Origin: Lytechinus pictus
Lineage: Eukaryota
Reading direction: 5' to 3'
NCBI RefSeq assembly: GCF_037042905.1
Contig: NC_087251.1
Coordinates: forward strand, 28,088,001-28,152,000
Length of the DNA: 64,000 nucleotides
This document shows, piece after piece, positions 8,296 through 62,981 of this stretch (position 1 is its first letter; every line of letters begins with the position of its first letter). The position numbers were made by a program, and so were the translations under genes. A model generated the notes under the pieces. It was not told where the DNA came from and made no database searches. It was given only the letters and a program-made list of their open reading frames with translations.

Positions 8296-9092
8296 GTAAG
8301 CTTAGCTTTCTAAATTTGTAAGCTAATGAGCCGCGAGAGCTGTCGTGGTACTAGTCAACAGGAGTCTCGGGCCAGAGCGGGGAGAGTTTATATGGGTAGC
8401 TGATCGCAAAAGAACGGGAGATGTGCAGCAGGCACCTGCCATTGGCTTTTGTCCAACGTTTGTCGCCTGTGTGAATTCAGAAACTTTTTACAGGAAGTTT
8501 TTCCTGTCATGGCAGTAGCCTATTGTGATTAAATGAAGAGTTTTAATATTGGCAAATATTCAAAACTTGTCACTGTGTTTTTTTTGAAAAATAAGCAAAA
8601 ATTCAAAATGTCATAACTTTCTTATTTTACATCTGATATTATTGAAATTTCCATTGTTATGCTTGTATATTTTCTATTTTTATCCAAACCACATTTTGTT
8701 GGGGGTGGACTTGACCTTTGACAATTCATTCTCATAGGTGGCTATGCATACAAGTCGTGCCAGAATTCACTACTATGATCATAGATGGGCTACATACTTC
8801 CAGCCTCAAGCTATAGGCCACTGTTCTTTTATGAAATGACAGCAATTTCACAAATGAAGTGATTGCTTTGCTGTGAATAGTAGGTCATCGTTGCATAAAA
8901 CATTCTACAAATTAAGCTACAGTTACATTGTATAAGCTGATGAAATAGTATTAATTGATTGGTGTGAGATTATTGATAAAGCTATAGTGTTATAAGCTGC
9001 TGAAATAGTTAAACTTGATTGGTTTGCAATTTTATTGGCTGAGAATTTTTATAATTTATATAATATTAATGTTAATACATATGGTTTATAAG

Positions 9093-14512: not shown

Positions 14513-14897
14513 GTAAGAGGTTGCCATGCAAGTCGGCCGTCGTTTGAGTCGGAGGAGTGCAAAGGGGATTAATACTTCTCTCTCATTCTGTCACAAGAAT
14601 ACTCTTGAGATCTCACCCCTGTGGTCGTCAGTTGGTCGAAGCAAAAAGCATGTCATAGTTTGCCACCACCGTCTTGGCTTAGAGCTGGGTACAAGCATGT
14701 GTCTGCACTTCCTTTGATCATTTGTGACTCAGTCTGAAGAAGGATCTTGGATGTTTGATGTCACTCACAAGGCTAACTTTTTTTTTGCAGTGGCAAGCAG
14801 CTGCTATTCTAGTGTTTGATTGCGCTCCTAATGCTCTAGCTACCTGCCAATGAATTTGTGTTGAGCAGTTTCTAATTAAATCAATTTAATTGTCAAC

Positions 14898-15657
14898 ATG
14901 GTTGCGCTGGAAACGTCACATCCCTTTGTTTTCATACTCATGTGGAAACTATTAACTTATTTTGTGGACACCGGACAGGGTTTAGAAGTGGTCGAGCGGG
15001 ATTATGAAATACCAATTAGTGCGGATACATTCTTGCATGGACCTCTTGTTGATTGGGGTATGAATGATTACCTGGAAATTGGCCAGAGAGCTGATGGGAT
15101 CGAAAGTCGCTCATTGTTAACATTTGATATCGGCCAGTTCATGTTGGAAAGCCAGTGGGGCCAGGAAGATAGATATCCAAATATAAACCGAAGCACAATC
15201 CTCAGAACTTCCCTCAGTCTTAGCTGCATCAACATCGAAAATGCCGGAAGTACCGATCCTTTCGAACGAAACTTTCAAGACACCCTCCATGTTGGCCGTA
15301 TCTTGGTTCCATGGGAGGAGGATGTAGCAACTTCCATTGTGCGTGCAAATGGTGGTCAGTTTTGGGAAGTGGAAAATGTAGGAATGGATGGAACCGATGC
15401 AACAGCTTCGGTTGCAAGTGCCTCTGTGGATATCACCTATGCAGCCTGCCAGGAAGGCGCGTCTGTTTCATTTGATATTACAGATACGCTCTTGTCATGG
15501 ATCAATGGGTCAAGTCCTAACTACGGTCTTGTGATTTGGGCCGAGGATGCCATACTTACAAGAAAGTGGATTAAGTTTGTATCTAGTGGTAGCCACGATG
15601 TCGTCAATCATCCAGTACTTGCAGTTACCATTCAAGATACACTAGTCACAACACCAG
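14898..15657 (+). CDS. First coding exon of a secreted or membrane protein: probable signal peptide plus DNRLRE (CBM96/disaggregatase-related)-like domain; the gene continues after a phase-1 intron
   Basis: Strong acceptor ctaactttttttttgcag| at 14790; start context aacATGG; N-terminal hydrophobic stretch ending G-Q-G; motifs ADTFL, DWG..DYLEIG, RSLLTFDI, WEE..AT, SFDITD.L.SW.NG..PNYGLVI, F.SS......P.L.VT; donor CCAG|GTGAGT after 15657. Confidence 0.85.
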
Positions 15658-18429
15658 GTGAGTACTCATTTCATAACAATATATTTGTAAACTTCCATAA
15701 GATAAATGTTCGTCCAAGTTGAAGCATTTTTTTAGACCAAATTATGCGAAACAAGTTATTTTTTCCTATAAAGTTGAACAGGTTTTTATGGTCTCAAAGA
15801 TTTGACTTAGCTAAATTACCTGTATATTACAGATATATTTGGATGTACTTGTAACAGCTTTTCAGTGCACCAAGACTGAGTACAATAGATTCTCGTTTCT
15901 TTCAGAGAGGATTTCTTATATGCATTGTATTGAAATTCCATAATTTGTATTGTTGATGGAATTGTAAAACAATCGTTTAACTTTGGAGGCATACAAATGT
16001 TACTGCAGAACATGCTTGCAGTTATCAAGGGTGTATTTATCACTGAGAATTTTCAACTACAACTTTAATCAGATTCATTCATGGTCAGTGTGCACCATAT
16101 CCATTTAATATGGCTATAAGAATATTGGCCCTAATCACGGCCAAAAAAGGACAAAAATGTGACTTAGCTGTTACATATAGCTCAACATACAATCCAATGA
16201 AAGTTGAATGAATGAAGAATGAATGAATGACCAAATGAATGACCAAACATATATATCATATACATTTATCACTGTAAAGTACATTAACATAAGTTTATAT
16301 AATAACATAGATGGTCTTTAGGACCCCGAGAGAAGCTAGGCTTGTGATAGGGGCCCTGTCCAAATAAAGATTCTGGGCGCAGTCATAGCTGAAGAAACAA
16401 GCACGAAATCTGGAACTTGGTGGCATAATGGGCAACTTACATAATGGACAACTTACTAATAATACAAGAAAAGAAAGTTCAATATAATTCATATACATTC
16501 TTACATGTGTGCAATTACAAAATATGATCCATTGCAATATTTCACCACATTGCACCTCATTTTGCTGTTACTGCCTTACCACTATATAACCAATTTGTCA
16601 ATGATTTCATTCAAATGGCCTACACCAAATCAGATATGATCTGATGCGATCCATCCTATCACCTGTATGTACATGTAGCAAACCTTGTCATAATTATTCT
16701 GAATTTATAGAAAAATCATTTGAATTTCAATCATCCCCAGTGCTTCTTATAATTTATGATTTTCCTATTTTCCTAATACTGCACACCCTTGTGAAAAATA
16801 ACTTGTTTTGTCTGTTCGGATGGTTGGAGGTACATATCTCCAATATAGTATATTTTATTGATCTTTTATCCTTGATATGTAGGCTAATAACCATTTGGTC
16901 TGCTTTTTCAATATGACCTAGTCTTTAATGGATCTTTCATCCATTGAAGTTTCAATTTGTCTATAACTTTCCAGTAGTTCTACGTACAGTTTCTATATTT
17001 GTTTAAGGCCCATTGAATTGTTTGCAATGCTCCAGATAGTTATTATTCAATCATATAAAACATGAAAATCAGAAGAATTACACTTATTGTGACAGATATA
17101 GACTTAAGTAATATGACACTGTATGCAGATGAACCATCACGAGTGGGAGATCTCATATTTTATCATGCATATGAATATATACATGTGTATCTATTAGGAT
17201 GGATAAATTCAGCAATTATCATGTTACATTTTTTGCACTTTCGAAAGCAAGTCAGGGTCGGTGAGAAGCAGGGGGTTCAGAGATAGCTGTCAACTAGTTT
17301 GTATTTCCTGAGGAGATAAGTGATTCAGATTTGATCTTTTAATTAGCACTCTTGTTGGGATCTCACTGCTCTAATGAGAGTCTGAAGTGCCAAGTACACA
17401 GTGGAGTAATCACAACCAACAGATAAATGTCAAACTTAAAGTGGCTTCGGTCGTCCTTGTCAGGTCAAGTCCTGACCCTTATTTCTCCCAGGTTTTATGA
17501 ATGGTCCCCCTACTATCCTATGTTTGTTTGCCACTCAACTGCTTCTCTTCTGAAGTGTGCACTAATTGACTTTTGAGGATTATGAAGGTTTTAAGAACAA
17601 ATCTATCTTGTTAGCATTCTGTCATGTCTCGTACTTTTGTTACTACTAACGATAGCATATAAACTTTTTACAAAATTTTGCTTTATGCATCATTTTTTAA
17701 TTTCAATTTTGTCTAAGTTTAATTATTCATCCTTTAATTTTGAAACACCTTTTGTGCTTTGATAAGGAGAAAATGTGACAGTCAGAAACATAACTGCATA
17801 ATGCTTATGAAATACCAATACCTGCACTTTAACAAGCATTGATAAAACATTTTATATCAGCTGTGAAGAGTTTTGTGTCAGTGGCTTGTTGGAGATGTAT
17901 GTAGATTGAGGTGTAACTCAAAAAGTCAAATGCAGTATGATCTTCAACATCTCAAAATCATGCATTTTTTAAACCAAAATTTAATTTTTGAGTTATGTTC
18001 ATATATATGCAATGTTTTCTACTGTGACCACACACCACTTCAAGCTAGTGCAGAATCCTAGTAGTTCAAATAACAATGCTCAAAGCTCTTATACTGAAAT
18101 TCAGTTTCACCGCAGTCCTTGTCAAGTGATTCATATTTGCCATCTTGGTAATCACATTTGAAAGAGATGATCAAAGAGTAATCCTTATGAGCTGTGTAGG
18201 ATTTTCTATGAACATGTACATCATTTGATAAAGTGAGGTATCACATGAAATGATGAAAATTCGAATTTGTTCAGTTGTACATCTGGATTTGGGAACATCT
18301 GGAAGGGAAAAGGCAATTAAGATTAATGTATCTGTTGAGTGGGTGTTAAAGTTGAATTAAGAAGGGGGTGAGTTTCCATAAATATAGGTTCTACATACAA
18401 TATATAGTATATATAAGTTGTTCAAACAC

Positions 18430-19760
18430 ATAGCATGTCACAATAATCCTCTGCCTTCTCGATATTTTGCTTTGAAAGTCTATGAAATTAGCCACCTGTC
18501 AGAGCCCGAGAGACGAGTGTACAGAAAAGTCACTCGGAGTGTGACGTCACCGGGGGGAATTTAGTATAAGAGGTGCCTGAATGTCATACAGAAATGCTAT
18601 GCAGAGAGAGAAAGATATTTTACAAATTTTTTTCAAAGCAACTCAAATCAAACAAATAGGACTGATATGTACAAATCTTTACTTTCCCTGTATAAAAAAC
18701 AGTATGAATAACCACCATGAACTCTTCAATCATGATGTAAGATAGCAAACAGTGAGTTATTGAATGATATTTTCACTATTTCTCATTTATTTTATCACGA
18801 TGTTCAATCAAGTGAGTAGCTGGAAAGTAATTCCGGAGGCTAGCTCAGCGCGCGCTGAACGCATAATACTTGTACACACAACACCCAGGCATTGAGTGTA
18901 CTGTTATGGTCTGGTATGTCGACTTAGTTCATGGCCGTGCAGCGATCCCCTGGCGTTTTTTCTTCTTTTCTTTTGTCTTTGACTCCACTTTTATATCCTC
19001 TGGATCATTTCCACTCATAGCTCATTCCACAGAACAATCTTGAACCAAAGGCGTAAAGTATTCTTTCTCGGCCTTCTGAGTTGTTTTCTATATTTAATTA
19101 CGCTAGGGGTCACCGTCACACATACAAACGCAATTCGGAAGTGAGTTGAAGACAGAAAGATATATAGTAATTAGTATACATCTCTATGGTTGAAGACAAC
19201 AAGAACGGTACGGTAGCTCGACAGCTAGCTGCGCCGGAGCGGGCGGCCGGTCGGCACAAAGCAATTCCGCAACTAACTGTGTTTTTTTGCAAGAGCCGCG
19301 TCACACGCGGATAAATATGTCATAATAACACGTCTGCTACGTTATCGACTGGTGAGAAGATCTCGATCAAATTTCATATTATTCACCTTGAAATTATCCC
19401 TTTAGGGTCTATGGTATCATTCTGAGGGAATTCACATATTTGGAATAATAGTACGGCCACAAATATTTTAATCATTTCCTCTTTGCAAGTTCTATGGCTC
19501 GCAGATACAACTTCAACTGCAGTTATTCCATATGAAGGAGTACGTGCATAGTACACAAAACGGCACTGCCTTGTTTACAACACCGGGACCGAATACCCCC
19601 CGGTGACGTCACACTCAAAGAACACCCGTCTCGGTAGGCATTGCAGGAGCGAACTCAGGGAAAATGGGTAGGGATAAATCGTTCAAATTCACTATTTTGA
19701 AAAAAGAAAATGGGGGGTCGAATCACCTATTAGTGTTTGGGGGGTTGTAAGGTTGCTATT
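18430..19760. mobile_element. Probable non-autonomous DNA element; ends uncertain
   Basis: Perfect 21-bp inverted repeat GAGTGTGACGTCACCGGGGGG at 18537-18557 and 19596-19616; interior is CpG-rich relative to the flanks. Confidence 0.5.
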
Positions 19761-19859
19761 AATGTAAATATCTCAATATTTGGAATCGTCTTCTTAATTC
19801 AACTTTAAGTTGGACACTGACTAGTTTTGTCCATGCTGTCAACAATTTTGTTATAATGA

Positions 19860-28780: not shown

Positions 28781-29298
28781 GGAATGGGTTCTTCTCCATC
28801 AGCCAGAATTGGCAAGTAATTTTCTGCGATTTCTGAAATGGCAATTCATTCCATATTATTTGTACACTGGAGACACAGATTTATCCATAGTCACATGTTT
28901 CTCCATTTTTTCCCCTTTTTTTTTTTTGGGGGGGGGGTGAAATAGTCATCTATTAGGTGTTTCACAAATGAATATGCAATCTGGTTTTAACTCGAATGGA
29001 TCCTATTCAAACAAGGCCAAAAATACAGGTGCCTTATCAACCCAAGGTCACATTCCATGTTCAAGCGAGAATGTGGTTCTTCCATCTTGAGATTAATATC
29101 AGTTCAGGCTAATGGAGCGATTCCCTCATCCCCTCTTCATATCATATCAATCATTTATCAAACTGTGATTTGTTTAGAATTATGTTTGCTTTGTTTTAAT
29201 AAAAACTGCATTATTTGTAAAATATTGAGTTTGAGCAAACCTAGACTGATGGAGGATCTACCTATGGTTGTAGAGAAATGAATGCCAATTGATGTTAG

Positions 29299-29895
29299 AG
29301 GTCAAGTCCACCCAAGGAAAATACTGACTTGAATAAATAGAGAAAAGTCAAAATAGCATAGTGCTGAAAATGTCATCAAAATCGGATGTAAAATAAGAAA
29401 GTTATGACATTTTAAAGTTTCGTTTATTTTTCACAAAACAGTGATATGCACAACTAGGTGAGTCAGTCGATGATGTCCATCACTTACTATTTCTTTTGTT
29501 TTTATTGTTTGAATTATACAATATTTCATACGTTATAGATTTGACATTAAGGACCAACTTGACTGAACCATATTGTATTAAACAATGCTAATTCCACATG
29601 TTCAGGGAGGAATTAATCATTGTATTACTTGATAATGAGGAGAAAATTAGAATATTTCATATAATAAAATACAAAAGAAATAGTGAGTGGATGATGTCAT
29701 AGCCTCCGCATTTGCATACCAGCCAGGATGTACATATAACTGTTTTGTGAAATTAAGCGAAAGTTTAAAATGTTTCTTATTTATATGATTACTTTCTTAT
29801 TTTACATCCGATTTTGATGAAATTTTCAGTGTTATGCTTGTTTGATTTTTCTCTTTTTATTTCAAATCAGCTTTTTGTTGGGGTGGACTTGTCCT
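29299..29895. mobile_element. Kolobok-like MITE, family A
   Basis: ttag|AGGTCAAGTCCACCC...GGGTGGACTTGTCCT|TTAA; homologous to 58772-59356; a further fragment at ~8590-8720. Confidence 0.85.
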
Positions 29896-32800
29896 TTAAT
29901 GTTTCAGAAGTCTGGTTATTAATTTATGTTAATATTGCTTTTCTTTGGACTCAAATAGCCAAAATTTTTATTTCCACAAGAACTGTTTTTAGTTGTTCAA
30001 TGAAATATAACATTGGCATTGCGTGTTTAAATATGTAGCTTACACAAAGAGAGATAATTCAAATCATATATTTTAAAAACAAGGGTGGAAGGGGTAAATC
30101 ACAATTTAAAAGGGTTAAGGAGTGACAGTGTTTTTTAATAAGGGTAAAAAATGCTGTTCTCAGCCCTTTTCAAACTTTTTTGCCTTTTGTGTCTTTAAAG
30201 TGTTTGTTTATAATTAGGAATTTAGTTGTTGGCTATTCAGGAAATTAAAAGTAGTTAAATTCATATGGTATGCAGAATGCGTAATAATTGTTCAGAAATA
30301 AATCGTAATGAATCAAATTAATATAAATTTGTATTTCATTATTCACTCTCATGTAGACATGTAGAGAAGGGTGCAATTGGATATAATCTACATATTTATA
30401 ATACATACAATTAAATAACAACCAGGGAATGAATACACGTACATGTAGTTGCTGTCTTCATTAATTAGCTGTTTTCCTAATTATCATATCATGATCATTC
30501 AGCTATTTGTGAGTGATGGGTATGTGTCATTTCAACATGATATTCACAGTTTTCACGGATTCCGCAATTTGTTAATCCCCTTAATAAGTCAGACCTTCTA
30601 ACATGTAAATGTATAGCCACCCAAATTAAAATCGAAATGAAGCAAAGAGGTTTACCTTGTATTACAGTGGCTATGTTCACATGACATCCTTATAGTATTA
30701 ACTTTTCAGTGTAATAATAATATCCAGTTCCTGTATATATACGTAATGCCATATTTGGAAGAAAAATGTTTGATTTCAGTAAATAGCTAGCATTTCTTTA
30801 AAATTTAAAGTCTATGATACAGATTTTAATCTAACAAAATCTGTGATTTCTCAGATTTTGTGGGGCAGGTAGTTCCATAATTTTGGTACCATAACAAAAT
30901 GAATTTTTATGAAATCTTGACTATCAAATGTCTCGTATTTTACACATATCTGAGAAAACATCCTGTGATCATGAATGAAGAAATTTCTAAATGGGATTGA
31001 TAGTGACATTTCAGCTATACTCACTTATATGAAAATAGTGAAATGCACATTCATAGTGTACTATTAAAAATCAGAGCAACTGCAAGTAAATTGCTTTAAT
31101 TGTGGTCAATTTTTTCGAAAATAACGTTGAGATATTTGTTTTCTATCCTGTATCTGTTAAAAAAATGATCCCATGAACCAATCCGATTCTATTTGATAAG
31201 CTCCCATGTTAACATTACAAACATAACATAAACAACTGAAATATATTGGAAAGTAATTGGTAGTCATGTGAACACAGCTATCATAATGTGTTACAGCGTA
31301 GGCAGATGTATAACCCTCCTCGGTAATCAGCGCTATCAAATTATGAAATGTATTAGAGGTCACGGCGGCATGTTGACATAAAGATGATTGTATACTTCCT
31401 GTATTAACAAGGGGGAGAAAAGGTTCTGCTCCTTAGATCAATGACAGATAAATGTTTTATTTGTAGCAAATGGTATTAAAATATTGTCGTGTTAAGATGT
31501 TTTACATGTACGTGATGGTGAATCAAATAAATGGGTGTTCTGATGTGATGGTTATTGATGAAAATAGACGATGACACAAAAGGGGTCAGTAATTGATAAG
31601 ACTTGGATTTCACTTGAGTAATTGTCTGCTATTTGAATTGTGGATTGAAGAGCAATTGATAGTATTTCTGTAATTATGCATCGTAATGTTATTATTGATT
31701 CATTTTTTTGGCGTATTACTCAAATTGCTGTTGAAATTGAGAAGAGAAAGATGTAATAGATGATGCATATTTTTGTGTGACACTGCATGACTACAGATTT
31801 GATTTCTAAAATTCATTTCTTTCTAAGTCTTTGTAACCATTTCCTCCTATACACTTTGGTAGAAAATCCTATATAAAAAAATGAAAGCGAGTGGAATTGA
31901 GGGGAGGGGGAGGGGATGAAAAGTTTTGTTTAAATCCCTATAAAGTTTATCATCCAAAGTTTGATTAAAAAGATTGACATTCAATTCTATGTTTTGTTCG
32001 TTTTTCGTCTATCATTTCGATTTAAAGTATTTCATAATCAAGCTCATGTTAGCTCCAATCTAGACAGAGGAGCATTTATACAAAGATCTTGCATAGTATC
32101 AGTAGTTTAGAGTTGAATGAATTGGGGGACTAGAAATTACCTCTTGAAAGTGATTTGAATTTACCCGCAACCTTTACCATTCTGATAACACAACACAAAC
32201 ATAATGTGCATCATTATAACACCACCAATCAGATTGCAGCATACAAATAAATCACACACTCTGTCAGAAAACGTTCATGTTACTCCTGAATAAAATACTG
32301 TATGTCAGTTCACTTTTGCACTTACACAAAAAATATATGCAACATAAAAAAGCTATCATTCAAATTTTGTCAATTGATGCTTCAAGCACCTTTTTGAAAG
32401 TTCAAACTATTCTTGGACCTTAATCTCCAGAGGAAAGTAATCAATCAAAGCACACCTGAGACTTCAATCTAATTATCAAGCCAAAAGAAAGAAAGAAAGA
32501 AAAAAAGAAATTGAATTTCTAGGCTGCTCTCCAAGCAATGCCTCTGGTTGATCCTATGTGATGTACCCTGCATTCACATTAGTGTCCGAAGGGTAGGGAA
32601 TTCCATGTACTAAGCTTACCATGTACCTTTAACTCTTATCCAACTGGCCTATTTGAGAGCCAAATGAGCAATGACACACTGGTTAACAAAATAAATTCAG
32701 TAAAATATTTTAATGTTGCCCAATCTGGCCTTATGATATACCAAAATAAAGCTAATTCTTTTGACACAAATTATTTTGAATAATTTGCATATATTATAAT

Positions 32801-33737
32801 ATCATATGCAAATTAGCACTTCTGCATATTCATGCAAAGACAGGTATTTTGGGCAAAAATCATATTTGATCATATAATTGAAAGGGAAATATAACTCAAA
32901 ATATAGTCAAACTTGCATGGAATATTCTTTGAAGTATGTAGAGTAAAAATAGGGGTCATTTTGTATATAAACATTATTGATGAGTTGTGAAGTAGGACAT
33001 ATTACATAATATTCAAATACGGGTAAAATTTTGTAAAAAATGCCTATACCAAAGTAGCTCACAAAAAAAATATTTAAAAATAAATGAATGATTTCTGCTC
33101 TTAGTAAGATGCTTTTTATGACAATAGGTATCTTTAGATAAAGGAAGAATGCTATATAGTAATTAAAAAAATCACAATATCAGATATTTTATGCAAATTA
33201 CTTCTTATGAATATTGATGAACGCATTGTTCAGGTGAAACAAAGTCTTTTCCTTCAAAGGGGAGTATGCAAAAAAAATATCCAAACCTCATGAGAATGAA
33301 GTATGAGTTATATTTTCAAATTATGAAATATCATATTTGTTTGTTATTTCCTTATTTATGATTCAAAGGTTTGTGAAATATGACACTTTACATGATATTC
33401 AAATACATAAGTGTGAATTCCGTTCAAGAAAATACATGTACATAACTACATATACACCAAAGTTGAATAAACAAAAAAATACATAGAAAAAGAAAACAAG
33501 TGATTCCTGCCTCATACATGATAGATAAATGTTTCTTCTGTACTTTTTTTAAACAAATGTTACAAAATTTGCGTATGTAATGTCATGAATATTGATGAGC
33601 TTGCGTAAAATAACATGTACCCACGAATAATTGTTTGTACAGTACAATAAAAAGATATAAATTATGGCAATGAGCCTTGCAAAATATCACATGTGTTTGG
33701 TGCAGTCTTTATTACAAGTGACTCAGATGGATGTCAA

Positions 33738-33794
33738 ACTGTCTTTCAGTCTCTATTTCACACTGTCTTTCAGTCTCTATTTCACACTGTCTTT
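33738..33794. repeat. 24-bp tandem repeat (about 2.4 copies) spanning the transposase stop codon
   Basis: actgtctttcagtctctatttcac twice, then actgtcttt. Confidence 0.9.
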
Positions 33795-35406
33795 GAAGGA
33801 GGGATCTGTGTGAAAAGTATAATAGCAGTTTCTCTTCTTGTTCATACAGAGATGGACATCACACCTCAAACATCGTACATATGATTTGTAGGCATTTTTC
33901 TTCATTGTTTTTGCACACACTTTGCAATCTAGTCTGTCTACACTGTCCTCTGGAAGGTGGAAGAATTCCGGGTCATTTGCTGGTACAGGAACAGCCGCTG
34001 CCTGTGGTGCTACAGGGCGATACAGAGGTACTGGATCGTCGTCATTGATTCCACCCAGCTGTCTGCAAAGCTCTTCGCGAAAATTGCGAGGATCATATCT
34101 TGATGGCCGATGCAGGGCCTCCACATTTGCATGCTTTCCCCTCCAATCTTGGAATAAGATGAAGGAATTTATGATCGCGATGTCTACAAAGTGAAAAAAC
34201 AAGGTCTTCCAATACTTCACAGTTTTCCGAAGAATGTCATAGTTAGACAGCAACTGGTCAGACCGGTCGACACCGCCCATGTAACTGTTGTAGTCGCGAA
34301 CAGCCATAGGTTGACGCACTAACTTCCGGTGGAATTGACCTCTTTCCTTCACTCTGCGTCGGCAATACTCGAAGTCATTTGCATCGTGAAAGGAGGAGAT
34401 CATGCTGATCGCTTTGTTGTCCTTCCACTGCTGGACGAGGTTCCCATCACTCCTGACCCATCTCATGTTCCCGCGCGATGCATTTCTGGACCAGTCCTTT
34501 ATAGTGGTTTTGAATTCCACTGGGAATCCTCTCCGATTACTATTAGCTGTCCCACATGCCCAAACCTGGTTTCTCTTTAAATCGGTCAACAGTTTCATCG
34601 ATGTGTAAAAATTATCGATATAAAGTTTGTAGCCTTGGTGCAACAAGTTTTCACAGAGACTGAAAACCACATCGTAGCTCAGCCCATTCTCGGAAGCTTG
34701 TTCTCGTCGTCCAATGTACACGTCAAAGTCAAACGTGTATCCGGTTTTAGAGTCCGCCACCACCCAAAGCTTGAAGCCCCATTTCGTTGGCTTATCGCGA
34801 ATGTACTGCCTTATTGAGAAGCGTCCTTTTGACCGCACCATTCGCTCATCAATAGCGATATGTTCATGGGGCTGATACAATGCCTGGCACGTCTGCTTCA
34901 TGTGGTCAAGAAGAAAACGAACTTTGCGTAACACATCATTGGGATCCTCTGTGTCAGGATCAACGACATGAAGAAAACTCATAATCGCCTTGTACCGATC
35001 CCTGGACATGAACGATCGCGACCATGAACCATGGTATAGCGTCGCTGTCGACCAGTAGCTCTCTATGTCTGGAAAGCGTGCAAGACCCATGTAGATAAGT
35101 AGTCCGATCAAGCTCCACATCTCATCAACTGTCACTGGATTCCAGGTCCCATCACTAGAGGCATAGGTTGAGTTATTGGCTATGTGGGCATTTGCGTATT
35201 TATTTGTATAATCACAAATTTGTTGGATTACTTCGATGGTGAAGAAGAGCTTGAAATAATCTTGTGCAGTCGTCATTGTGGCAGCACCCTGTCTTGTCCT
35301 CACATTCTCCAACTGTGCTCCTGAAGGTCGATTAGACCTGAACTTCAATTCTCGCTTGGCAGGGCCATTGCCATCTCGGTCATCATAGGACTTGTACTGG
35401 ACTCTC
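33777..35406 (-). CDS. piggyBac (PGBD4-like, DDE_Tnp_1_7) transposase, exon 2
   Basis: Catalytic motifs IAIDERMV, YIDNFYTS, GGVDRSDQ; KPTKWGFKLW; C-terminal Cys-rich domain CKVC...CLRCDVHLC...CYYTFH; acceptor ctttcttttttcgttatttcatcacag| (phase 2); AATAAA on the - strand at 33708-33713. Confidence 0.95.
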
Positions 35407-36136
35407 CTGTGATGAAATAACGAAAAAAGAAAGCTTACATTAGACCTCAACTGCATAGGCTTATAAAAAAATGGAATACATCAGGCCTAGAATTATACAC
35501 GGAAAATAAGATGAAAATAAAATGAAATGAAAAAAAAAAAAATAAAGAGAAATCTACATATTATCAAATGATGCAATAATGGGACCGCAATAATATATCC
35601 TTTTTTTTTTAAACTAGAATTTTTGATAAAGGAGGGGTGAGGTTTTTGGTGCCCCCTGTAAAAAAAAAATGAAGAAAAACAACAATGAGAGTGAGAGTGG
35701 GTGACAATTTTTTTATCTTGGGGGGGGGGGGGATTGCAGTTCATCAGTCATCAGGATGCAAACCAAAGAACCTTTTTTTTTTTTTTTTTTGCTGGAAAGA
35801 CCATTGTTAGTCCTTATTTTGGCAGTGTCTTTATTTGTTCTCATCATTTCAGTCTAAAAACTCCCGTATAACACTTTGTAATGCTAATATTCATATGTTT
35901 TAGCTACCATTCCCAAATAAACATCCAACCGGAAGTTGAAAATTTAAATGTCTGTGCACTTCCGGTTTCGAAAATGATCGGGACAGGTGACAGTTTTATC
36001 AATAGTAAACCATAATTAGGCCGGTATTTCCCAATAAAACATAATATTTCACAAAAATATTAACTTTTACACGGAATATTAGCTTCCACTAGTGTTTTTA
36101 TTGAAATAAAATGATAAAATAAGGAGGTAAACTTAC

Positions 36137-36357
36137 TGAGTTTGTCTTGCAGCAGTAGCTCTCCTTCCGCCTCGCTGACGGCCACGTACGGCCCTTCGTG
36201 GTGCCTGCACACGGGATGTTGAAGGAGCATCATTATCGGATGAATTATCATCCGAAATGTCAGTATAATCTGAAGAATCATCACTCAAACCCCTGTTCAG
36301 GTCTGACTCTTCCCCTGAATCCAAGACTGAAACCATTTCAACATCGCTATCATCCAT
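36137..36357 (-). CDS. piggyBac transposase, exon 1 (acidic/Ser-rich, then basic N-terminus)
   Basis: MDDSDVEMVS...DDSSDYTDISDD...RGRQRGGRR; donor CA|GTAAGT (phase 2) joins exon 2 in frame, giving 616 aa. Confidence 0.85.
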
Positions 36358-36959
36358 TTTGAACGATTTTTCTTCGGAGGGACAATGATCAAAATCAGCG
36401 AGTCGCGAACGTAAACATGCACCGCGATGCCCACGAGCTGAAGCTAGCAGGGACCTGCCTGAATGAAAAAGACGTCTCTTATTTCAGTTGTCCGGAAAAT
36501 ACCGATCGTTTCCGGAAATGTCCATATTTGGATATCATCGTAAAGCAGAGAATTCGCCCTATCTTTTGAGGTATATTTCGAGGATATACGATGTTTTACG
36601 GAGATTCTACGAACGGGGAAAGTTTGTTGACACGGAGCTCCGGTCATATATGACCGGGATTTCGTGGCACCGTTGGATAAGAGTTAAAGAGAATTCTCCT
36701 CCAGTCCTGTATTCTGGACAGTCATAAAAAAACTCTTTCGCTCTTGTTTTAAGGAGTTCATGAACAAATTTTGGAGGAGAGAGCACCCTTGGGTGCGAAA
36801 GTTATGGGGTACAGCTGTTTTCATGTAACATGTAAGGTGGTTGCAATATAAGGTATGGATGTCATGCCATTCATGCCTATATGTTATATATAACGTGAAT
36901 TCTCTCTGTCTGAACCCCAGAGACATGCAGGTGTCATCAAGTAGCATTTGAAAAAAAAT

Positions 36960-37345
36960 AAGATAAGGCGGTGCTGCACCAGCCCGAGTTTGCTTAATCT
37001 CGAGATTTTAGCCCCATCGGCCCTCTTCATGATTAATCTCGAGATTAATGAAACCCCATCTCCACCAGCGCAATTCGTGCTCGAGCGAGGCTTCAATGCA
37101 TTATGGTCTGACGCCGTGAATAAATAATCCTGAGTGTGTCTGCACCTGCGAATTAGCAGGATAATTTGTAAATAGCGCTCTATTTTGCAAATAATCCTAA
37201 GTTGACTTAGGATTCCAATCTCGAGATTAATCCAGCGAACTATCCCGATGATTGCGTCTCCATTACAAATAATCTCGAGATTGTTCAGATTGGGATAATT
37301 TGGCGAATCAGAAATAGCGCGATTATTTGAAAACTCGAGAGACCA
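36960..37345. repeat. Probable MITE remnant with palindromic AATCTCGAGATT repeats
   Basis: Four copies of aatctcgagatt within ~300 bp; termini not resolved. Confidence 0.5.
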
Positions 37346-39436
37346 CTTCTTCCCTTCAGATACCTGGTATCAGCGATGTCCAAAGATGCATTACAATTCT
37401 TTCAGTGATTTTCTATGATTAATATTCCCATGTCCAGTCAGATGCAAGGATTTCAGTAGCTTATAGCATTTACTTTGATTTTCATTGTTATCTTTTCATG
37501 AAATACTTTTCAGATTATCTAAATAATTAGGAAGATGAGTCAGAAGTAAACAAGCATTTTTACTACAGATATTTTTACCCAGTACACTCTCAGTACTAGT
37601 ATACATATAACCTATGGTCTACATGCCTCCTAATAAGACCTATGCTGTACCCAAAGGGCAATTGATATTTTCTCTTGGAGAGAAAATAATTCATAACTTC
37701 TATTTCAGAAAGGTAATGACTTCTATTAGTCATTATGATTACAACTGTCACATAGTTCATCCATAAAACGGCAATAACCAAGCAATACTTGTCACAATGT
37801 TATTGTAGCTTGGTTATAAATTATCCACAGATGTGAACTTTATGAAACATATTTCATGTCATTTTATACGTAGATCCATTTATTGTTAAAAGGAAAACAA
37901 ACAGATTAATAATTGGTATACAGACCAGTGGGTAACAAAGGTATTCTTGATATTACAATTTACTATTAAATTTTGTACATGGTTATCATTGTATTTACAG
38001 TTATGCTTGTTTAGTTTATGAATTATTGATTAAGTAATTATACTATGTACATGTAGATCTTCCCATGAGCAACGCGACCAAGATCTGTGATGCCATATAC
38101 ATACAACTTCCCTATTTACTTAACCTAAATTTATTGTTTTTAAATCTTTAAAATCAGATTAATTACTTTGTGATTTTATTAGAACAAACTCTTCGTACAG
38201 ACTTGTATTTAATTCCTTCATGACAGGGGTATAGCATGACTCCTGTATATGAACAAGCCTTGAGATTCCACGATGGAATAAAATGTCCATGGATGTGGTA
38301 CAAACGGAGATCATCGACGTTGAAACCACTATTATCTCTGACGTAAGATGTCTCCATCCATTAATACAAGAGCAAAGATGTTCTTCATTTTGTTGCGGCT
38401 CCTGTAATCTTCCAATCCTTTCACAATTTGGCAATTTTTGTCCAACGCCGCCGCAGGGCTGAGGTTTACTTTGCTTGACATGATTCAGCGCATCTTCTGC
38501 CATTATAGGATATCATTATTATGAGCTTTGGTAAGAGATCCATTAGGAAATCAATATCTTGAGCATTTTCATATCTCCCATTTTCCCTGTTCCTGTTTTT
38601 CAACCTCCTTTAAAAAAAATCTTTTTGTATTCATCAAAAGCCTATAGTCACAAGGGGTCCGGGGGTTTGATCGAACCCCCTAAAATTGTCAAAGCCAAGA
38701 GAAAATAGGAGAAGGGAAGAGAAAAAATCAAACACCCTAAATGAAAACCTGGCTCCAGGGCTGCATTCCATTTATTTGTTTGAAGTCACGTTTCCTCTTT
38801 TGTTTTCTCTATCACTTAGCTTTCACTTCATCTGCCTCTTTACTCCTTTATTTCTTTGTTTTTGCTTTACTTATATGCCTGAAATTTCTTATTAATATAC
38901 CCCTCTTTCTCTTTCTTTCCTTTCTTCCTTCCTCAATTCATCTCTCTCCTAGCCTTCACTACTCTCTTTCCTCCTTATAGAAATTGATTATTTTCAGATT
39001 TTTTAGACTGAGATGAGATTTTGGTCACTATTCAATTTTTTCAATTTCCATCATTTTTTATTGATCTCTGTACTACAGTAGGCTGCAATGAAGTGATAAT
39101 TGTCCTCTTAACAAGCCTTCAAAAATATTTCCATGGAAGTTGTGTCTCGGGAAAAGAATACTTAATTGAGGTCATTATGTACGTGTATTGGCCCTTATGT
39201 ATGTGTGGGTGATCGCTTTGATATTGAGTGGTTATTAAAAATGATCCCCCGTTATGCAACATTTGATTCCTCGTCTTCTTTATTATCTAATTATGGAAAC
39301 TCAATGTCAATTGAACTGATGTAATGGAGCTAAGAAAACCATTGGAACATAATTCCTATCAAGACACATACAAGTCACTTGCTATTAATGAGGTCAGAAA
39401 TGGGGGGCTCTTGTTCTAGGAAATTAGACATATTAA

Positions 39437-40019
39437 AGGAGAATGAAACCCTTGAAACCAGCTGAATCCATATCAAAGAGAAAAATCAAAGAAACATATT
39501 GTTCAAAGTTTGAGGAAGGTTGAATGAATAATAAGAAAGTTATGAGCATTTGAATATTGAGATCACTAGTGCCATGTAGATCCTCCTATCGGCAATGCGA
39601 CCAAGATCTGTGATATAACAAACGTACAACTCCCTCATTACTTTAGTACTTATTTCACTTATATTCTCATTTTTATAGAGTCTATCACAAGGTGAGGTGT
39701 TCTCTTTATGAGATGACAAGTACAGAGGTTTCACAACATTATATCATTGATGAATCGTTTGTCATATGATTAGAATGAGCAAAAAGAGATGTTTTGGGGT
39801 ATATTTTCAGTGTCCAAATGGGAGAGTTGTACGCGTGTGACATCACAGATCTTGGTCGCATTGCCAATGGGAGGATCTCCATAGCATTAGTGATCTCGAC
39901 ATTCAAATGCTCATAACTCTTTTATTGCTAGTCCTATTTTACTCAAAGTTTTGTTGATCTTATTCTTTGATTTTTCTGCTTTCACAAAAGCTAACTTGCT
40001 CCAAGAGTTTCATTCTCCT
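39437..40019 (+). mobile_element. Kolobok-like MITE, family B, copy 1
   Basis: TTAA|AGGAGAATGAAAC...GTTTCATTCTCCT|TTAA. Confidence 0.9.
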
Positions 40020-40824
40020 TTAATGTAAGGAAAGTTGCAGTATATCATATTGTGAATGCATGGTGAAGGATTCATCATCTAGACTTCGTTATACTTGTAG
40101 TTGAAAACAAGGTCTTGATGGCTTTTAAATATTCTTGTAAATCTTGCTCCAAACTAATGTTTACTTCAAGCACAGCAGTGTGCAGCATTCAGCTTGTCAA
40201 TGACCCCCCAACAAAGCTATTGCATATTTCAATAGATTATAATACTGTGTTTGCATAGCCACTGTTGTGATTTCCTTTAATGATTAATTCAGTGACCTTT
40301 ATGAAAATTGTAAACTAAGGTAGAATTTGCAGGACAAGTGTTCGAGTAAATACTCCAAATCCATGTCAAGCAGTGTTCCTATGTAATTATATAGGCCTAT
40401 AGCCCTCTAGGGTCGGAAACAGAAGGGTGTTTAGGCCTATAAGCAGAAATTGAGGAAGCATTTTATGGAGTTTCACCCGTTCTTATTTAGGATTGTTAAA
40501 AAATTGTGTATATTTTTTTCTTAAATTGTATTTCTCAACCTCCTTTTCTTTTCTTTTCATTTCTTCTCTTCTTTATCCAGCCTTCATCTTAATCAACAAA
40601 TTGTCTTATTCATTTCTCCCCTTCTTTTTTATAGTTTATTATTATAATCATAAATACTATCATTATTATTGTTTTAAATTTATTTCTGTAATTAGTTTTA
40701 TTATTACCTATATCGATCATCATTACTTTCTTTTCATGATTTATATTTCCATCATAATCCTCATCATCATCATTGTTTTTATCAGATTTGTCAAATTTGG
40801 CATTACAGCATGAATATTTGTTAA

Positions 40825-41408
40825 AGGAGAATGAAACTCTTGGAGCAAGTTAGCTTTTGTGAAAGCAGAAAAATCAAAGAATAAGATCAACAAAAGTTTG
40901 AGTAAAATAGGACTAGCAATAGAAGAGTTATGAGCATTTGAATGTCGAGATCACTAATGCTATGGAGATCCTCCCATTGGCAATGCGACCAAGATCTATG
41001 ATGTCACAGATGAACAACTCTCCCCTTTTGGACACTGAAAATATACCCCAAAACATCTCTTTTTGCTCATTCTAATCATATGACAAACGATTCATCAATG
41101 ATATAATGTTGTGAAACCTCTGTACTTGTCCTCTCATAAAGAGAACACCTCACCTTGTGATAGACTCTATAAAAGTGAGAATATAAGTGAAATAAGTACT
41201 AGAGTAATGAGGGAGTTGTACGTGTGTGACATCACAGATCTTGGTCGCATTGCCAATGGGAGGATCTACATGGCATTAGTGATCTCAATATTCAAATGCT
41301 CATAACTTTCTTATTATTCATACAATCTTCCTCAAACTTTCAACAATATGTTTTTTTGATTTTTCTCTTTGATATGGATTCAGCTGGTTTCAAGGGTTTC
41401 ATTCTCCT
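40825..41408 (-). mobile_element. Kolobok-like MITE, family B, copy 2 (inverted relative to copy 1)
   Basis: Same TIR and TTAA TSD; interior is the near-identical reverse complement of 39437-40019. Confidence 0.9.
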
Positions 41409-42953
41409 TTAATAGTAGTAGACATCATGCAGTAGAAGTGGCAGCAGCTTCATTGATATATTTTTTTTTACTTTCTAACAATTGTGTAAAATCAAATTGA
41501 TCATCAAATTTGCTGTAAATATGTCTCTTAGTCTTGTATGGTTCAGGTTGCTAATTACTTACAAGAATATGCCTTCTTTGTTAAATGCTGCAAAACAAAA
41601 TAACCAAGGTCTTAGTTTTCTATTTTTACATAAGGAGGTTACTAACATTTTGAATTTTAATAAGAAGTTTTTTATCCACATGCATGGCAAGTGGTTGTTG
41701 AAGCTTAAAGAGAGCAATTGAAAAACAATTTCAATATCAAAGTAATTATCTCTTGCAGTGATGCAGGTGAAATCTCTATTACTGACTGGTAGGGAGATAA
41801 ATCTTTTCCCAGTAATTAGAACAATAATGGGAGATTACATACACTTGATTGGTTGTACGTGACTGAAAATATCTGATTTATTAGACATCTGATAGATTGT
41901 AATCTAGGACCCAACGATAAATCAAAATTTCAATTTCTTCAAGTGTGTATTATCATTTCAGGTAAATGATATGTGTTTGCAATATTTTTTTTTCTCTTTT
42001 GTCTTGTCAAAATGTGAACAGTAATGACATATATAAAAATAAAATAAAAAATAAGATGTAGAGAGAGGGCAAGAGAGAAAGGGAGAGCGAGCGAGGAGGT
42101 ATAGGAGTATATATAGTCTGCAAACTAGCACAGACTCAAATTTGACACTTCAACAAATCATACCATGTCTAGAGAGAAGACTAGCCTCCATACTCTCTGT
42201 CTTTGTCAGCAGCCATGTGGTGCATGAGGAACATGTAGTCTCACACCTTCAGACTGCATGATGCACTATATGAAAACAGGAGGTCTGTGCGTGCAGATTA
42301 GTATGTGAGAGTTAAGAAGCTTCTGCCTCGTTTAGTTGCATTGATCAACATGATGTGAAGTGAAACCAATTCTGTCTTATCAAAGTACAACTTATTTACA
42401 TAATACACAATGTATTGCAGTTACAATCGAATAAATACTTTGTTTGCTAGACCATTCTTGTTGCTTCCCCTTCTCACAAGCAAATATTTACCGGAGTAAC
42501 ATTGCTGAATTTAGAAGGCTTGACCTCGTCTGATAGCATGAAGGGAGTAATGTGGAAGAAATCACTCTAAAATGATGCATCAATCATTGCTCACTTGCAA
42601 TTTTAATTGTTGAGATGTGCTAGATTCCAAAAGTAGATGATCATGTTAATACATCTATTTTAGTGGTATTCTTGGTATTCACTGCAATGAAGAGTGCAGT
42701 CCAATTTCTGAGATGCCATACAGGCAAAATGAAAAATATAAGACTGGTAATATTATTCAAGTTACGACAAGCACAGAGATGAGGAAGCAAGGCATATCAT
42801 AACTCATTTTATTTATCTTTACTTATTCTATTTCGTTTAAGTTCAATTTTCTCCCTGTTGTTTCATTCATACCATGTTAATTGGATATCAATCAAATAAT
42901 ATCCTTCAGTTTGTTGTTTGCACAATGCATACAAGATTGATACGCTTTCATAA

Positions 42954-45366: not shown

Positions 45367-46127
45367 GGGTGCGTTTATCCGCCACTTTATTACCCTAGAA
45401 TCATGATCTGAATCATGATTCTGCAGAATCACGATTGCGTTTAGTCGAAATTGAATATAATCATGATTAGAATCACAAACATGAAACGCGAAAAAGGGGC
45501 GTTTGGAAAGACGTTTCTGCAGAATCACGTACGAAAATGTTCGAATAAACAATATCGTGATTACAATCATGATTCTATGACGTCCATCATTGTGTCGGGC
45601 TACTTTAGGTTTGACTCTTGCCAAGCGCAAGACGTGCTATGCTCAGTGTATTTATACATAATATGATATGCATGCATTCTGTGTTGGGCATCGCATCGTC
45701 CACTTCTTTTCATCTTTTTTTTGGTCATGTCTTCAACTTCAAGTAAACTAGTAAATGAACTAACTGAACAGACAATGATATCAATTGTTGTTGAGTTAAC
45801 AAGTGTCAATATGAAATTGGATCTACGCTAAAATTTACATCCGAACACAATATTCGATAAACCGACAAGAAGAATAATAAGTAAACAAATTATAATAGAC
45901 TGAATTCGTAAGGTACAGGATTGATTTTTCGAGAGCCAAAACACGTGCGAAAAAAGTTGACCTATCTTCCTCTGTCAAACTGCGCACTGGATCGGTCCGA
46001 ATCCGAGGAAAAACAGCTTTAAAATGAAGGTCATCTGAACGCTGATTCTGTGGTATTGTGATTCATGTTTGTGTTTTGAATCATGATTCAAATCATGATT
46101 CTGGCTTGAGGTCGCATAAACGCAGCC
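45367..46127. mobile_element. Harbinger-like MITE
   Basis: TAA|gggtgcgtttat...ataaacgcagcc|TAA; subterminal aatcatgatt palindromes. Confidence 0.75.
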
Positions 46128-46327
46128 TAAGCATAACACACATTTTCGATAGACCCACTGTGATGCGCACTGGATCGGTCCGAATCCGAGGAAAAACAGC
46201 TTTAAAATGAAGGTCGTCTGAACGCTGATTCTGTGGTATTGTGATTCATGTTTGTGTTTTGAATCATGATTCTGGCTTGAGGTCGCATAAACGCAGCCTA
46301 AGTATAACACACATTTTCGATAGACCC
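45981..46327. repeat. Tandem duplication (183-bp period) of the MITE right end plus flank
   Basis: tgcgcactggatcggtccgaatcc...cattttcgatagaccc begins at 45981 and 46164. Confidence 0.9.
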
Positions 46328-49043
46328 CAACCAATGTGTAGGGTGGCCTAGTCTCCAGTGGGTCAAACTTCCCATCAACTTTTCTACGCCCCCAATGGAA
46401 GTGATGCCCTGGGAGTGACCCCCTTAACCCCCCCCCCCCTACAGCAATTGATTCCTGTGAGATGAAAAGAGACACCCATTATCACTCTGTTTATGTACCT
46501 CTCTTGTAAATGATCCTAACAACAGTGATAACAGAAGAAAGTTTCACTTTTCAGTTTCAAAACTTTTTGGAATAGGATATATTTCATTGTTTTTAAATGG
46601 AACAAACGTGATAAAAGGTATATGGGTCAATTTCCATGCACCCAGGTCTTATCACTGCATAATCCACATATGATATGATATCAAAGATGTTATTTTCTTA
46701 ATTTGACATTAAGCTAATAATTAAATAAACTTTGATTGTTCTTCATTATTGAATAACAAGTTCATTAACATGATAGGAGCACCCCCCCAAAAAAGGGAAG
46801 TGGAGTTTTGTATAAGGGAAGTCCACATGATATCTTGATAATAGAAGGACAACATGAGAAGGCACAAGAACAGGTCAATGCCATTTGAGCAAAGCATAGG
46901 CCTATTTACTTTAAAAAATGTTTGTTTAAAATAATTGAACACAAAGTGAATTGATATATATTTCTTGTGTATGCTTACAAAGAATTTTGATGAATTTGAA
47001 ATGATCTTTACCCTTTTTTCCTCTTGAATTTCCATTTATTGAAGTCTTATTTCTCACTTTCAGTTTCATTTCTATACAGGCCTATTAAGAATGTTCATAA
47101 TTCATCAATTTTATTTACCTTCTACAAAATTTTCAGCTGTTTCAGGAGTAGAGATAGGCCTACATGTACGTGTAGTTTCCCTTAAATCTAAACATATAAT
47201 GTACCTTCAGTCCTTTGGGAAATCAAGGTATGCTAGACCCAAGACAATGATTTGATTTATGATGACTGTTTGGAGATGTGAAATATCTCTCATCTATGAT
47301 CCTATAACCTTCTTTCCCTTGACATTTAAAGTGGGCGGAAAAAAAAACCCTCCTTCTCATTGCTCTTGATTTGTGAGCGGATTAAATAAAAGTAAGAACT
47401 GTGTTTTGTACAATCTCCCAGTCCTTTGGATAAAAAATGTTTTTGAGATACTAAATTAAGCCATATGCTGAGCCTCCATAAGACCAGAAAAGCATTTCTC
47501 CAAATTTTTCTTCATAGATTTATTGTCATTCAATTTTTCTGTTTCATTAGCTATAAAAATGATTCTGCTGAATATAGAAACATATTTACCTCTACAATCA
47601 GTATTAAGGAGGAACATTGATTATGATTCAAAATTTGTTAAAGGAGAAAATTCAGTCGAAGTGAATGAAAAAAATTATATTTTAGCATTCAAAGTTATGC
47701 TTTTTCCCTCCCCAGTGATTGAATATAGCTTCACGATGTCATAAGTCCATTTTCCTTTTCTGTCTTATTTTTCTGTGAGAAATCACAAATATTCTGAATA
47801 TCAGCTCCAATAATGTAAAACATATAGTAAGGCTTTACATGAAATATGTCAATTATAATCGTAAGATATTTTTAAACAATGGAGGGAATTTTATTCATAT
47901 ACGAAAGAAAAAAAAATCTTTAATTCATATTGAATTGTAGATATACACATTGAAATTAATTTAATGGAATTATGAGTTCTATTATTTGCATATATTATTG
48001 TTATTATTATTTGTAACAAACATATGCCAATACAGCAATACATCATGTACCCTGACTACTCCACATTGATTCATTCTTCACCATGGAAACCTTAGAAGTT
48101 AGTCATTTGAAATTTAAAAAATTTATGAAATTTTAAATGCTTTATAAAGACCTATGTTAAATGAATAATCCAAAGTAATAAAGCACAGCGTGTCATTTGT
48201 TCAGCTAGACCCTACCCCCATGTTTGAAAGACCTTTTGAAGCCCCTGGATTGTATCTTTTTTTTATTGGTAAGATATTGACAACCAAGATTCTCTTGAGA
48301 GTTCCTAGGTTAAGCAGTTTAATGTGATGAGATTTCCGGTGAAGTCAGTCCCTCTACTGAATACAATGGTCTGACCCCAGTCAGAGTTCAAGTTTCCCTT
48401 ACAATTCTCTTCTACCTGAAAAAAAAAATCAACTTTCACTTGTCAAAGATAAGAGATTACAAAGTTCAAAGTCCTTTGATATTGCCCAGAATGTATTTCT
48501 TGAAACCTGAGAGAGAACAGGGCATAGCAGATTGTTTTGTCTTAATAGCGTTGATTAGATATCTGTTGTTAAAATTTCTGTAAGCATTGATGAAAAAGTT
48601 TTCAGTGAAAGAGATTTCATACATTTATTTATGGATAACCCTGGTTTATTTGGTGTATAAAGGCAAGTATTAGATTATAAGCTGTGCCTCCAGTGGCTTT
48701 TACATAGTAATCATGAGTGTTTTCACCAAATCCATTACCAAACTGAATTATGAGAGTAGACTCTTAAAGGATTTTAAAATTTCATCACTGTAAAAAAAAT
48801 GTTCTAATGCTCTGAATTTCTAATTGAGGAACAGGGAGGTCCTTTGAAAGGAAAGCAGATCTCGGATATTGGAGTATTGTACAGTTTCCTGAAAATATCA
48901 GAATATATCCCTAAGAGGAAAGTATTATCGGAAATGTGGATCAATAGAGGAAGTCTGACATGATTGGTCTGTAATATGGATAGATTGAATGGGTGGGATA
49001 AGTAGGGTGCATAAACCACAGATCCCCAGGTCTCTGTGACTAG

Positions 49044-58720: not shown

Positions 58721-58771
58721 GGGGGCCGGAACACAAAACTTAGCAATTTGGTCATAATTGATTGCACTTAA

Positions 58772-59356
58772 AGGTCAAGTCCACCCCAGAAAAATGTTGA
58801 TTTGAATAAATAGAGAAAATCAACCTAGCAGAACGCTGAAAATTTCATCAAAATCGGATGTAAAATAAGAAAGTTATGACATTTTAAAGTTTCGCTTATT
58901 TAAAAAAAAAACAGTGACATGCAAATGAGACAGTCGATGATGTCCTTCACTCACTATTTCTTTTGTTTTTTATTGTTTGAATTATACAATATTTCATTTT
59001 TTACAAATTTGACAATATGGACCAACTTGACTGAACCATATAGTATTAAACAATGCTAATTCCATATGCTCAGGGAGGAATTATTGTTGTTTCACTTGAC
59101 TATGAGGAGAAAATTACAATATTTCATATTTCATATAATAAAATAAAAAAGAAATAGTGAGTGGATGATGTCATCAGTCTTCTCATTTGATTACCGACCA
59201 GGATGTGCATATAATTGTTTTGTGAAATTAAGCGAAACTTTAAAATGTCATAACTTTCTTATTTTACATCCGATTTTGATGAAATTTTCAGTGTTATGTT
59301 TGTTGGATTTGTCTCTTTTTATGCAAATAAACTTTTTGTTGGTGTGGACTTGTCCT
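58772..59356. mobile_element. Kolobok-like MITE, family A
   Basis: TTAA|AGGTCAAGTCCAC...GTGGACTTGTCCT|TTAA. Confidence 0.9.
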
Positions 59357-62647: not shown

Positions 62648-62981
62648 CTGGAAGAGAGGAAAATGAATTTCAATTTATTTTTTTCCCACCACTTTAAGCA
62701 ATTAAGCAAAACTTTTAAATGTAATAACCTCTTTATTTTGAATTTTCTGTGTTTTGTAATGACGATTTCATTTTTCTTAATTTATTGAAATAAAATTTTT
62801 GTTGGGGTAGATTTCGATCTTCAGCATAGATGTAGAGTTTGCTTGTGAATTTATGGACTGATGAAATCTGTGCTTGACTTGCCACCTTGATGCACCCCTC
62901 TCTGCTGGATGTATGTACAGAATTATGGAACCATTTGTGAATAGTCATCATCCTGTTAAATTATCAGATTGATGAACTTAC

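Follow-up and report, generated by a model that had tools for sequence, protein, structure and literature searches.

The window analysed here is a 64,000-nucleotide stretch of the Lytechinus pictus genome (contig NC_087251.1, positions 28,088,001 to 28,152,000). It contains a piggyBac-like element (PBLE) of 4,059 bp, at 32629-36687, with its transposase on the minus strand. An earlier note, made from the letters alone, had presented this element as an intact piggyBac whose intron-split transposase might be controlled by splicing. In its ends and in its protein, the element is a well-formed PBLE, of a kind that is already known.

Corroborating the earlier note, TTAA target-site duplications (TSDs) bound the element, and each adjoins, on its inner side, a perfect 12-bp terminal inverted repeat (TIR), CTCTTATCCAAC. 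Such a pair of ends is rare in the window: among 28,038 pairs of TTAAs lying 1-10 kb apart, only three show a perfect inverted match of at least nine bases on their inner sides, and the element is one of the three. The chance expectation for a 12-base match is approximately 0.01, as extrapolated from the roughly 3.5-fold fall in counts per added base. The TIRs start with CTCTTA, which fits the PBLE motif C[C/A/T][C/A/T][T/G/A][T/A/G][T/G/A]; both the TIRs and the TTAAs are thus of the PBLE type. The start CTCT had been read as a departure from the usual terminus. We reject this view, as PBLE TIRs are described as about 12-19 bp long with a motif, C[C/A/T][C/A/T][T/G/A], that includes CTCT (PMC5381638; articles are cited here by identifier, each from excerpts of its text), and CTCT also opens the TIRs in four of the five related loci that have paired TIRs. 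A perfect palindrome in the 5' subterminal region is possibly a transposase-binding site. No further copy of the element, nor any miniature inverted-repeat derivative of it, was found within the 64-kb window.

The protein is equally characteristic. Its core matches the Pfam family DDE_Tnp_1_7 (PF13843) with E = 3e-88, and structures in the PDB are matched as well: piggyBat (9c0f, E = 8e-53) and 6x67, a 594-residue protein of the length of the Trichoplusia ni (T. ni) transposase (E = 5e-33). A search with the exon 2 protein yielded 1,291 relatives, the best 120 of which were used for comparison. In alignments to 6x67 and 9c0f, the catalytic residues of the spliced protein are D260, D338, D454 and D457, the equivalents of the D268, D346, D447 and D450 that mark a PBLE; aspartate is conserved at these positions in 118, 117, 119 and 119 of 119 homologs, respectively. 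The C-terminal domain has the Cys-rich character of PBLEs (C568, C571, C586, C589, C594 and C601, with H557, H592 and H606), and five of its Cys columns are kept in 111-112 of the 119 homologs. The uninterrupted DDD triad and the Cys-rich domain, both of which had been pointed out earlier, are therefore present and conserved. The element has in common with T. ni piggyBac and with piggyBat (Myotis lucifugus) the TTAA TSD, the 12-bp TIR motif, the D-D-D(+D) core, the Cys-rich C-terminus and an acidic N-terminus. It differs from T. ni piggyBac, which comprises 2,475 bp with one uninterrupted open reading frame (ORF), as the earlier note had it (PMC5381638), in its greater length, its 730-nt intron and its 1.1-kb 3' region.

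Exon-intron structure

When the two coding exons are joined across the predicted intron, they read as a protein of 616 amino acids (aa). If the intron is retained, the frame meets TAA at once and ends after 74 aa. The longest uninterrupted ORF, a 559-aa protein termed P0001, begins inside the intron. In these respects, the sequence bears out what had been claimed of it, including the poly(A) signal beyond the stop codon. The intron has a donor CA/GTAAG and, following a pyrimidine tract, an acceptor CACAG/G; its GC content is 32%, as against 48% and 46% in the exons. Five pyrimidine-rich acceptors occur within it, of which only that at 35407 restores the long frame; the other four lead to products of 74-127 aa. 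A branch-point-like word, CTAAT, is present at 35443-35439, in agreement with what we take to be the branch-point consensus. The product of exon 1 is acidic, then Arg-rich, and has four S/T-x-x-D/E sites, presumably instances of the CK2 consensus.

Two AATAAA words in the intron (36102 and 35835) were considered as a premature polyadenylation switch and rejected, since chance alone would give about one in a 730-nt sequence of 32% GC. Four ATGs at 36418-36647, upstream of the proposed start and opening frames of 7-67 codons, could represent upstream ORFs, depending on the transcription start.

Features of the piggyBac-like element, in window coordinates.
Feature	Position	Strand	Remarks
5' TTAA target-site duplication	36684..36687	n/a
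5' terminal inverted repeat	36672..36683	-	12 bp, CTCTTATCCAAC
Subterminal palindrome	36640..36657	n/a	Perfect, 18 bp; within a 42-bp imperfect hairpin, 36628-36669
Coding exon 1	36137..36357	-	ATG at 36357; 221 nt (73 codons + 2 nt), phase 2
Intron, phase 2, GT-AG	35407..36136	-	730 nt; predicted from sequence
Coding exon 2	33777..35406	-	piggyBac catalytic core and Cys/His-rich C-terminal domain; stop at 33777
Tandem repeat, 24 bp	33734..33794		2.5 copies; spans the stop codon
AATAAA poly(A) signal	33708..33713	-	64 nt past the stop
Degenerate direct repeats about 386 bp apart and inverted TAATTTGCATA words	32783..33406		AT-rich 3' subterminal region
3' terminal inverted repeat	32633..32644	+	12 bp
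3' TTAA target-site duplication	32629..32632	n/a	Contigs of runs X1 and X5 end exactly here

Relatives of the transposase and their introns

The closest protein among the matches listed is 72% identical to the element's; next come Lytechinus models whose cores are 56% and 61% identical. The Lytechinus proteins are automatic gene models named "piggyBac transposable element-derived protein 4-like" (PGBD4-like; XP_041460062.1 and XP_041474413.1 of L. variegatus, XP_054750142.1 of L. pictus). They share a homologous acidic N-terminus with the element and group with it at a support of 0.998 in a FastTree tree of 44 rows. Searched by BLASTP within a set of 121 proteins, exon 1 matches the N-termini of Lytechinus transposases P0004 (44% over 48 aa, E = 3e-6) and P0003 (37% over 73 aa, E = 4e-5). 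Several homologs called as plain ORFs start, like P0001, with an F/I/Y-rich stretch right before the conserved core; we infer that these starts may be translated intron ends.

The arrangement of an N-terminal exon apart from the core recurs among relatives. Seventy-nine related loci, taken from metagenome contigs, were scored for the N-terminal motif at E <= 0.001. The motif was present in 26, being split from the core in 21 and contiguous with it in five. In the split loci, which include near-identical copies and hence do not amount to 21 independent events, the motif frame lies 0.7-1.9 kb before the core, and a phase-2 GT donor follows it closely in every case. Moreover, in six pairs of contigs, one member lacks precisely one GT..AG segment that the other has before the core; five of these segments, 90-588 nt long, are distinct. 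The six pairs were drawn from 15 gap rows, ten of which ended in GT..AG under a scoring scheme that gave such ends a bonus; a row was counted only where the segment preceded the core and no fewer than 11 of 12 positions matched in either flank. Left out were two rows representing one 164-nt loss in the coding region, two that matched poorly and five with other ends. The shorter forms are either spliced transcripts or intron-loss copies, and in both cases the boundaries behave as splice sites. Among the split relatives are whole elements that have TTAA and TIRs starting with CTCT: one (L014) yields 732 aa by way of a single phase-2 intron, and another was found at differing TTAA flanks (L021, L022 and L039). 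Mobile piggyBacs that combine CTCT ends with an intron-split transposase are thus common in this aquatic clade. In the contigs of L018 and L028, one N-terminal intron is gone and another kept; if these contigs are transcripts, splicing is often incomplete.

The intron-split transposase had been offered as unusual, a claim that these comparisons do not support: an N-terminal intron is found in 21 of the 26 motif-bearing relatives, and a mobile precedent exists in Pokey of Daphnia. Pokey, likewise a mobile member of the piggyBac superfamily, needs spliceosomal removal of an intron, as shown by reverse-transcription PCR (PMC3849761). That intron measures 68-84 bp and lengthens the reading frame from 487 aa to 668 aa, which places it far from the N-terminus (PMC3849761); the present one is 730 nt long and separates only the N-terminal 74 codons. 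The TAA that follows immediately upon retention also loses its force as a sign of regulation, and we reject it as such. It is a by-product of phase 2, because any phase-2 G/TAAG or G/TGAG donor reads as a stop; indeed, the donor itself creates the stop in 18 of the 21 split loci.

In the excerpts of PMC5381638, introns in piggyBac-derived genes are reported only for the domesticated PGBD5, PGM and TPB2. The literature searched, a scope beyond which lay most subscription papers, Repbase entries and supplements, yielded no account of mobile piggyBacs with an N-terminal intron throughout a clade. Within it, the excerpts of PMC10175614, PMC5601938, PMC5822658, PMC2872659 and PMC2533014 held nothing on transposase introns, nor did the papers on Teratorn or the coral CMITE. 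The clade-wide phase-2 N-terminal intron is a modest feature, apparently under-described, that bears on the mining of piggyBac transposases.

Copies, activity and the role of the intron

Sequencing runs give a view of the element beyond the window. Run X1 consists of contigs whose type is not on record; they match the window without a difference along 674 bp of flank, and the run possibly represents the source sample. Run X5, from another study, also consists of contigs of uncertain type (guessed to be RNA). Contigs from both runs carry the element in a form about 99.7% like the window copy, the differences across some 4 kb being approximately nine substitutions with good support plus a few small indels. 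The contig end at the 3' TTAA in both runs is as expected where flanks differ beyond the TTAA, that is, in a young multi-copy family. In X1, the left flank has a depth of 12.8 and the contig joining flank and TIR one of 6.4; within the element, depth is 74-84 along the 3' three quarters and about 42-50 in the 5' part. The depth of the element is thus about sixfold that of the flank; as the type of X1 is uncertain and the depths are those of contigs, this ratio gives no firm copy number. If X1 is genomic DNA, it suggests about a dozen haploid copies. With ends and frame intact as well, these observations uphold the description of the element as young and possibly mobile. Its present activity is plausible on the sequence. 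In the RNA runs, no depth is recorded on the left flank, and in X1 its depth is that of unique sequence, which does not suggest insertion into ribosomal DNA, the target of Pokey. Run X9, labelled as a second organism, holds 0.28 of the sampled words; a related species or a transfer may be involved, and we record it as a lead only.

The window copy and the contigs differ at two informative residues. At residue 124 (window 35257), the window copy has Y, and the majority contigs of X1 and X5 have F, as do 108 of 119 homologs. At residue 223 (window 34960), the window copy has D and the majority contigs V; among the homologs, 102 have D, 15 have N and 2 have H. The two alleles depart from the family consensus in opposite ways.

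From these data, we consider it probable that the element is an autonomous PBLE of the aquatic clade annotated as PGBD4-like and belongs to a young multi-copy family, with an ordinary intron that is most likely spliced constitutively. The constitutive splicing of the intron, taken by itself, also seems likely to us. Transcription would proceed along the minus strand from near the 5' end, and the host spliceosome would remove the phase-2 intron—as the sequence and the relatives suggest—joining an acidic, disordered N-terminal exon to the core. If it acts like other members of its family, the 616-aa DDD transposase would then bind the TIRs and subterminal repeats, cut, and reinsert the element at TTAA. 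The intron would be a normal, host-like feature of the clade, spliced whenever the element is transcribed.

Several observations weigh against this account. The phase-2 intron and the 616-aa product proposed in the earlier note stand as features of the sequence, but their actual splicing lacks a counterpart in the reads: no spliced joint across the intron was found in four runs. Of these, X10 leaves the element nearly uncovered, and X12 leaves exon 1 without a read; the fraction read was about 6% in each of these two raw RNA runs. X12 reaches a depth of 6 in places, with some reads inside the intron. The reads show that expression was low in the X10 and X12 samples; coverage this thin says nothing on splicing. 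An empty-site joint was likewise not listed in four runs. The BLASTP matches of exon 1 sit in acidic low-complexity sequence, and a profile built from seven homolog N-termini scores exon 1 at only E = 0.44, though this is its sole match in the window. The motif and the intron are some 55 codons apart, whereas in most relatives only a few codons separate the motif from the donor; given this distance, the introns may not descend from a single ancestral one. Finally, with Y124 in the window copy and V223 in the majority contigs, the family's present activity is not assured.

The last point leads to the alternative that fares best, although we think it unlikely. It holds that the family amplified recently and is now largely dead or non-autonomous, the window copy being intact by virtue of its youth and the commonest allele being damaged; it overlaps with the account given above. 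The majority V223 stands where all 119 homologs have D, N or H and aligns to D227/D228 of the T. ni protein, the two RNA runs are nearly silent, and some contigs are less deep at the 5' end and have a gap of 30 bases there. Against this view, neither the frame nor the triad is damaged in the window copy, no break in either was seen in the contigs examined, and four X12 reads carry the D223 allele. Residue 223 lies outside the triad, and no data on mutants of T. ni D227/D228 were found in the literature searched.

Could splicing instead be the regulated step, as it is for the third intron (IVS3) of the Drosophila P element? The intron would then be retained in the soma or under the control of Piwi-interacting RNAs and removed in the germline, thereby restricting transposition. 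We judge this improbable. The P element, also a DNA transposon that yields a truncated product upon intron retention, offers a precedent (PMC7776569); the retained reading here gives only 74 aa, the intron is unspliced in X1 and X5 contigs and in some X12 reads, L018 and L028 have lost one intron while keeping another, and phase 2 is common to all 21 split relatives. Yet the immediate stop follows from phase 2 and the donor consensus, the splice sites and the branch-point-like word come close to consensus, and the contigs that keep the intron may derive from DNA or from read-through pre-mRNA. Most X12 reads are of the first-mate-minus type, an orientation that in the usual stranded protocol is antisense to the transposase (the strandedness of the run is not on record). 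The comparison is also imperfect: the P transposase is unrelated and its regulation has been demonstrated, and, in contrast to the 66-kDa P repressor, the 74-aa product lacks a core that binds DNA. Nor need exon 1 be an on-switch, as T. ni piggyBac gains activity on losing its first 74 residues (bioRxiv 2022.09.26.509586).

Even less credence is due to the idea that the acceptor at 35407 serves as an exon trap or alternative entry, such that host exons or the intronic ATG of the 559-aa frame would supply a replaced or truncated N-terminus and a different activity. A 3' splice site before the core and a poly(A) signal after it do correspond to the described exon-trap layout of piggyBacs (PMC2268245, PMC5381638), including that of PGBD3, which forms CSB-PGBD3 from a 3' splice site just before its catalytic exon and an AATAAA after it (PMC2268245). 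In the T. ni transposase, a 74-residue N-terminal deletion raises integration (bioRxiv 2022.09.26.509586), and exon 1 spans 74 codons. In contrast to PGBD3, the element brings a donor and a homologous first exon of its own, and no fusion to host sequence was observed. A Pfam scan of 263 of the 344 short frames listed gave no family at or above its cut-off, no minus-strand host exon was recognised near the element, and no joints into 35406 were listed, under almost no RNA coverage. Furthermore, a 100-residue N-terminal deletion lowers activity (PMC9499001). N-terminal phosphorylation is inhibitory (bioRxiv 2022.09.26.509586). On a more far-reaching reading, this widespread aquatic clade would have repeatedly kept a phase-2 intron between a regulatory acidic N-terminus and the core, and splicing, retention or acceptor entry would select no enzyme, a full-length enzyme restrained by phosphorylation or an N-terminally truncated one of different activity. 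We hold such a natural splicing dial on mobility to be improbable. That the element is a domesticated single-copy PGBD gene, introns being described mainly for domesticated PGBD5, PGM and TPB2 (PMC5381638), we dismiss as highly implausible, with TIRs and TSDs perfect, contigs ending at the TTAA in both runs, X1 depth about sixfold that of the flank and the junction contig at half the flank depth.

On the preferred account of an autonomous element with an ordinary intron, a young echinoderm family with fully defined transposase and ends would be directly testable as a vector. Since mobile aquatic piggyBacs commonly have N-terminal introns, surveys based on the longest ORF will pick intron-started or truncated proteins and misjudge activity and domestication; P0001 and several homologs appear to be such cases. 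Were splicing regulated after all, piggyBacs would have a counterpart to the IVS3 control of P elements; no description of such a counterpart was found in the literature searched.

Neighbouring sequence

The frame at 14880-15722 (plus strand, 280 codons) resembles a large host exon and has a weak disaggregatase-repeat Pfam match below the cut-off. It suggests a plus-strand host gene, to which the element may lie antisense. A CDC14-like host gene (DSPn match at 45978-46478) was considered and rejected; the match is below the Pfam cut-off and falls in a locally duplicated stretch. On the minus strand, an acidic, coiled-coil-like frame of 351 codons (61726-62781) has no Pfam match and resembles what we take to be Harbinger/MSANTD-type accessory proteins.

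Other repeats are present in the window. A very high-copy repeat at 36966-37470, 280 bp from the element's 5' end, reaches contig depths in the thousands, contains palindromic AATCTCGAGATT words and takes nearly all of the RNA reads examined. The TTAA-bounded unit at 39433-41412 (1.98 kb) has inverted arms of about 590 bp that are 96% alike and begin with AGG; its TTAA and purine-purine ends recall, we presume, non-autonomous Kolobok elements. Relatives of this unit occur at 29295-29901, 58768-59362 and 8568-8723. Another TTAA-bounded unit, at 18346-19808, has a perfect 15-bp inverted end beginning with AG and is probably a non-autonomous element.

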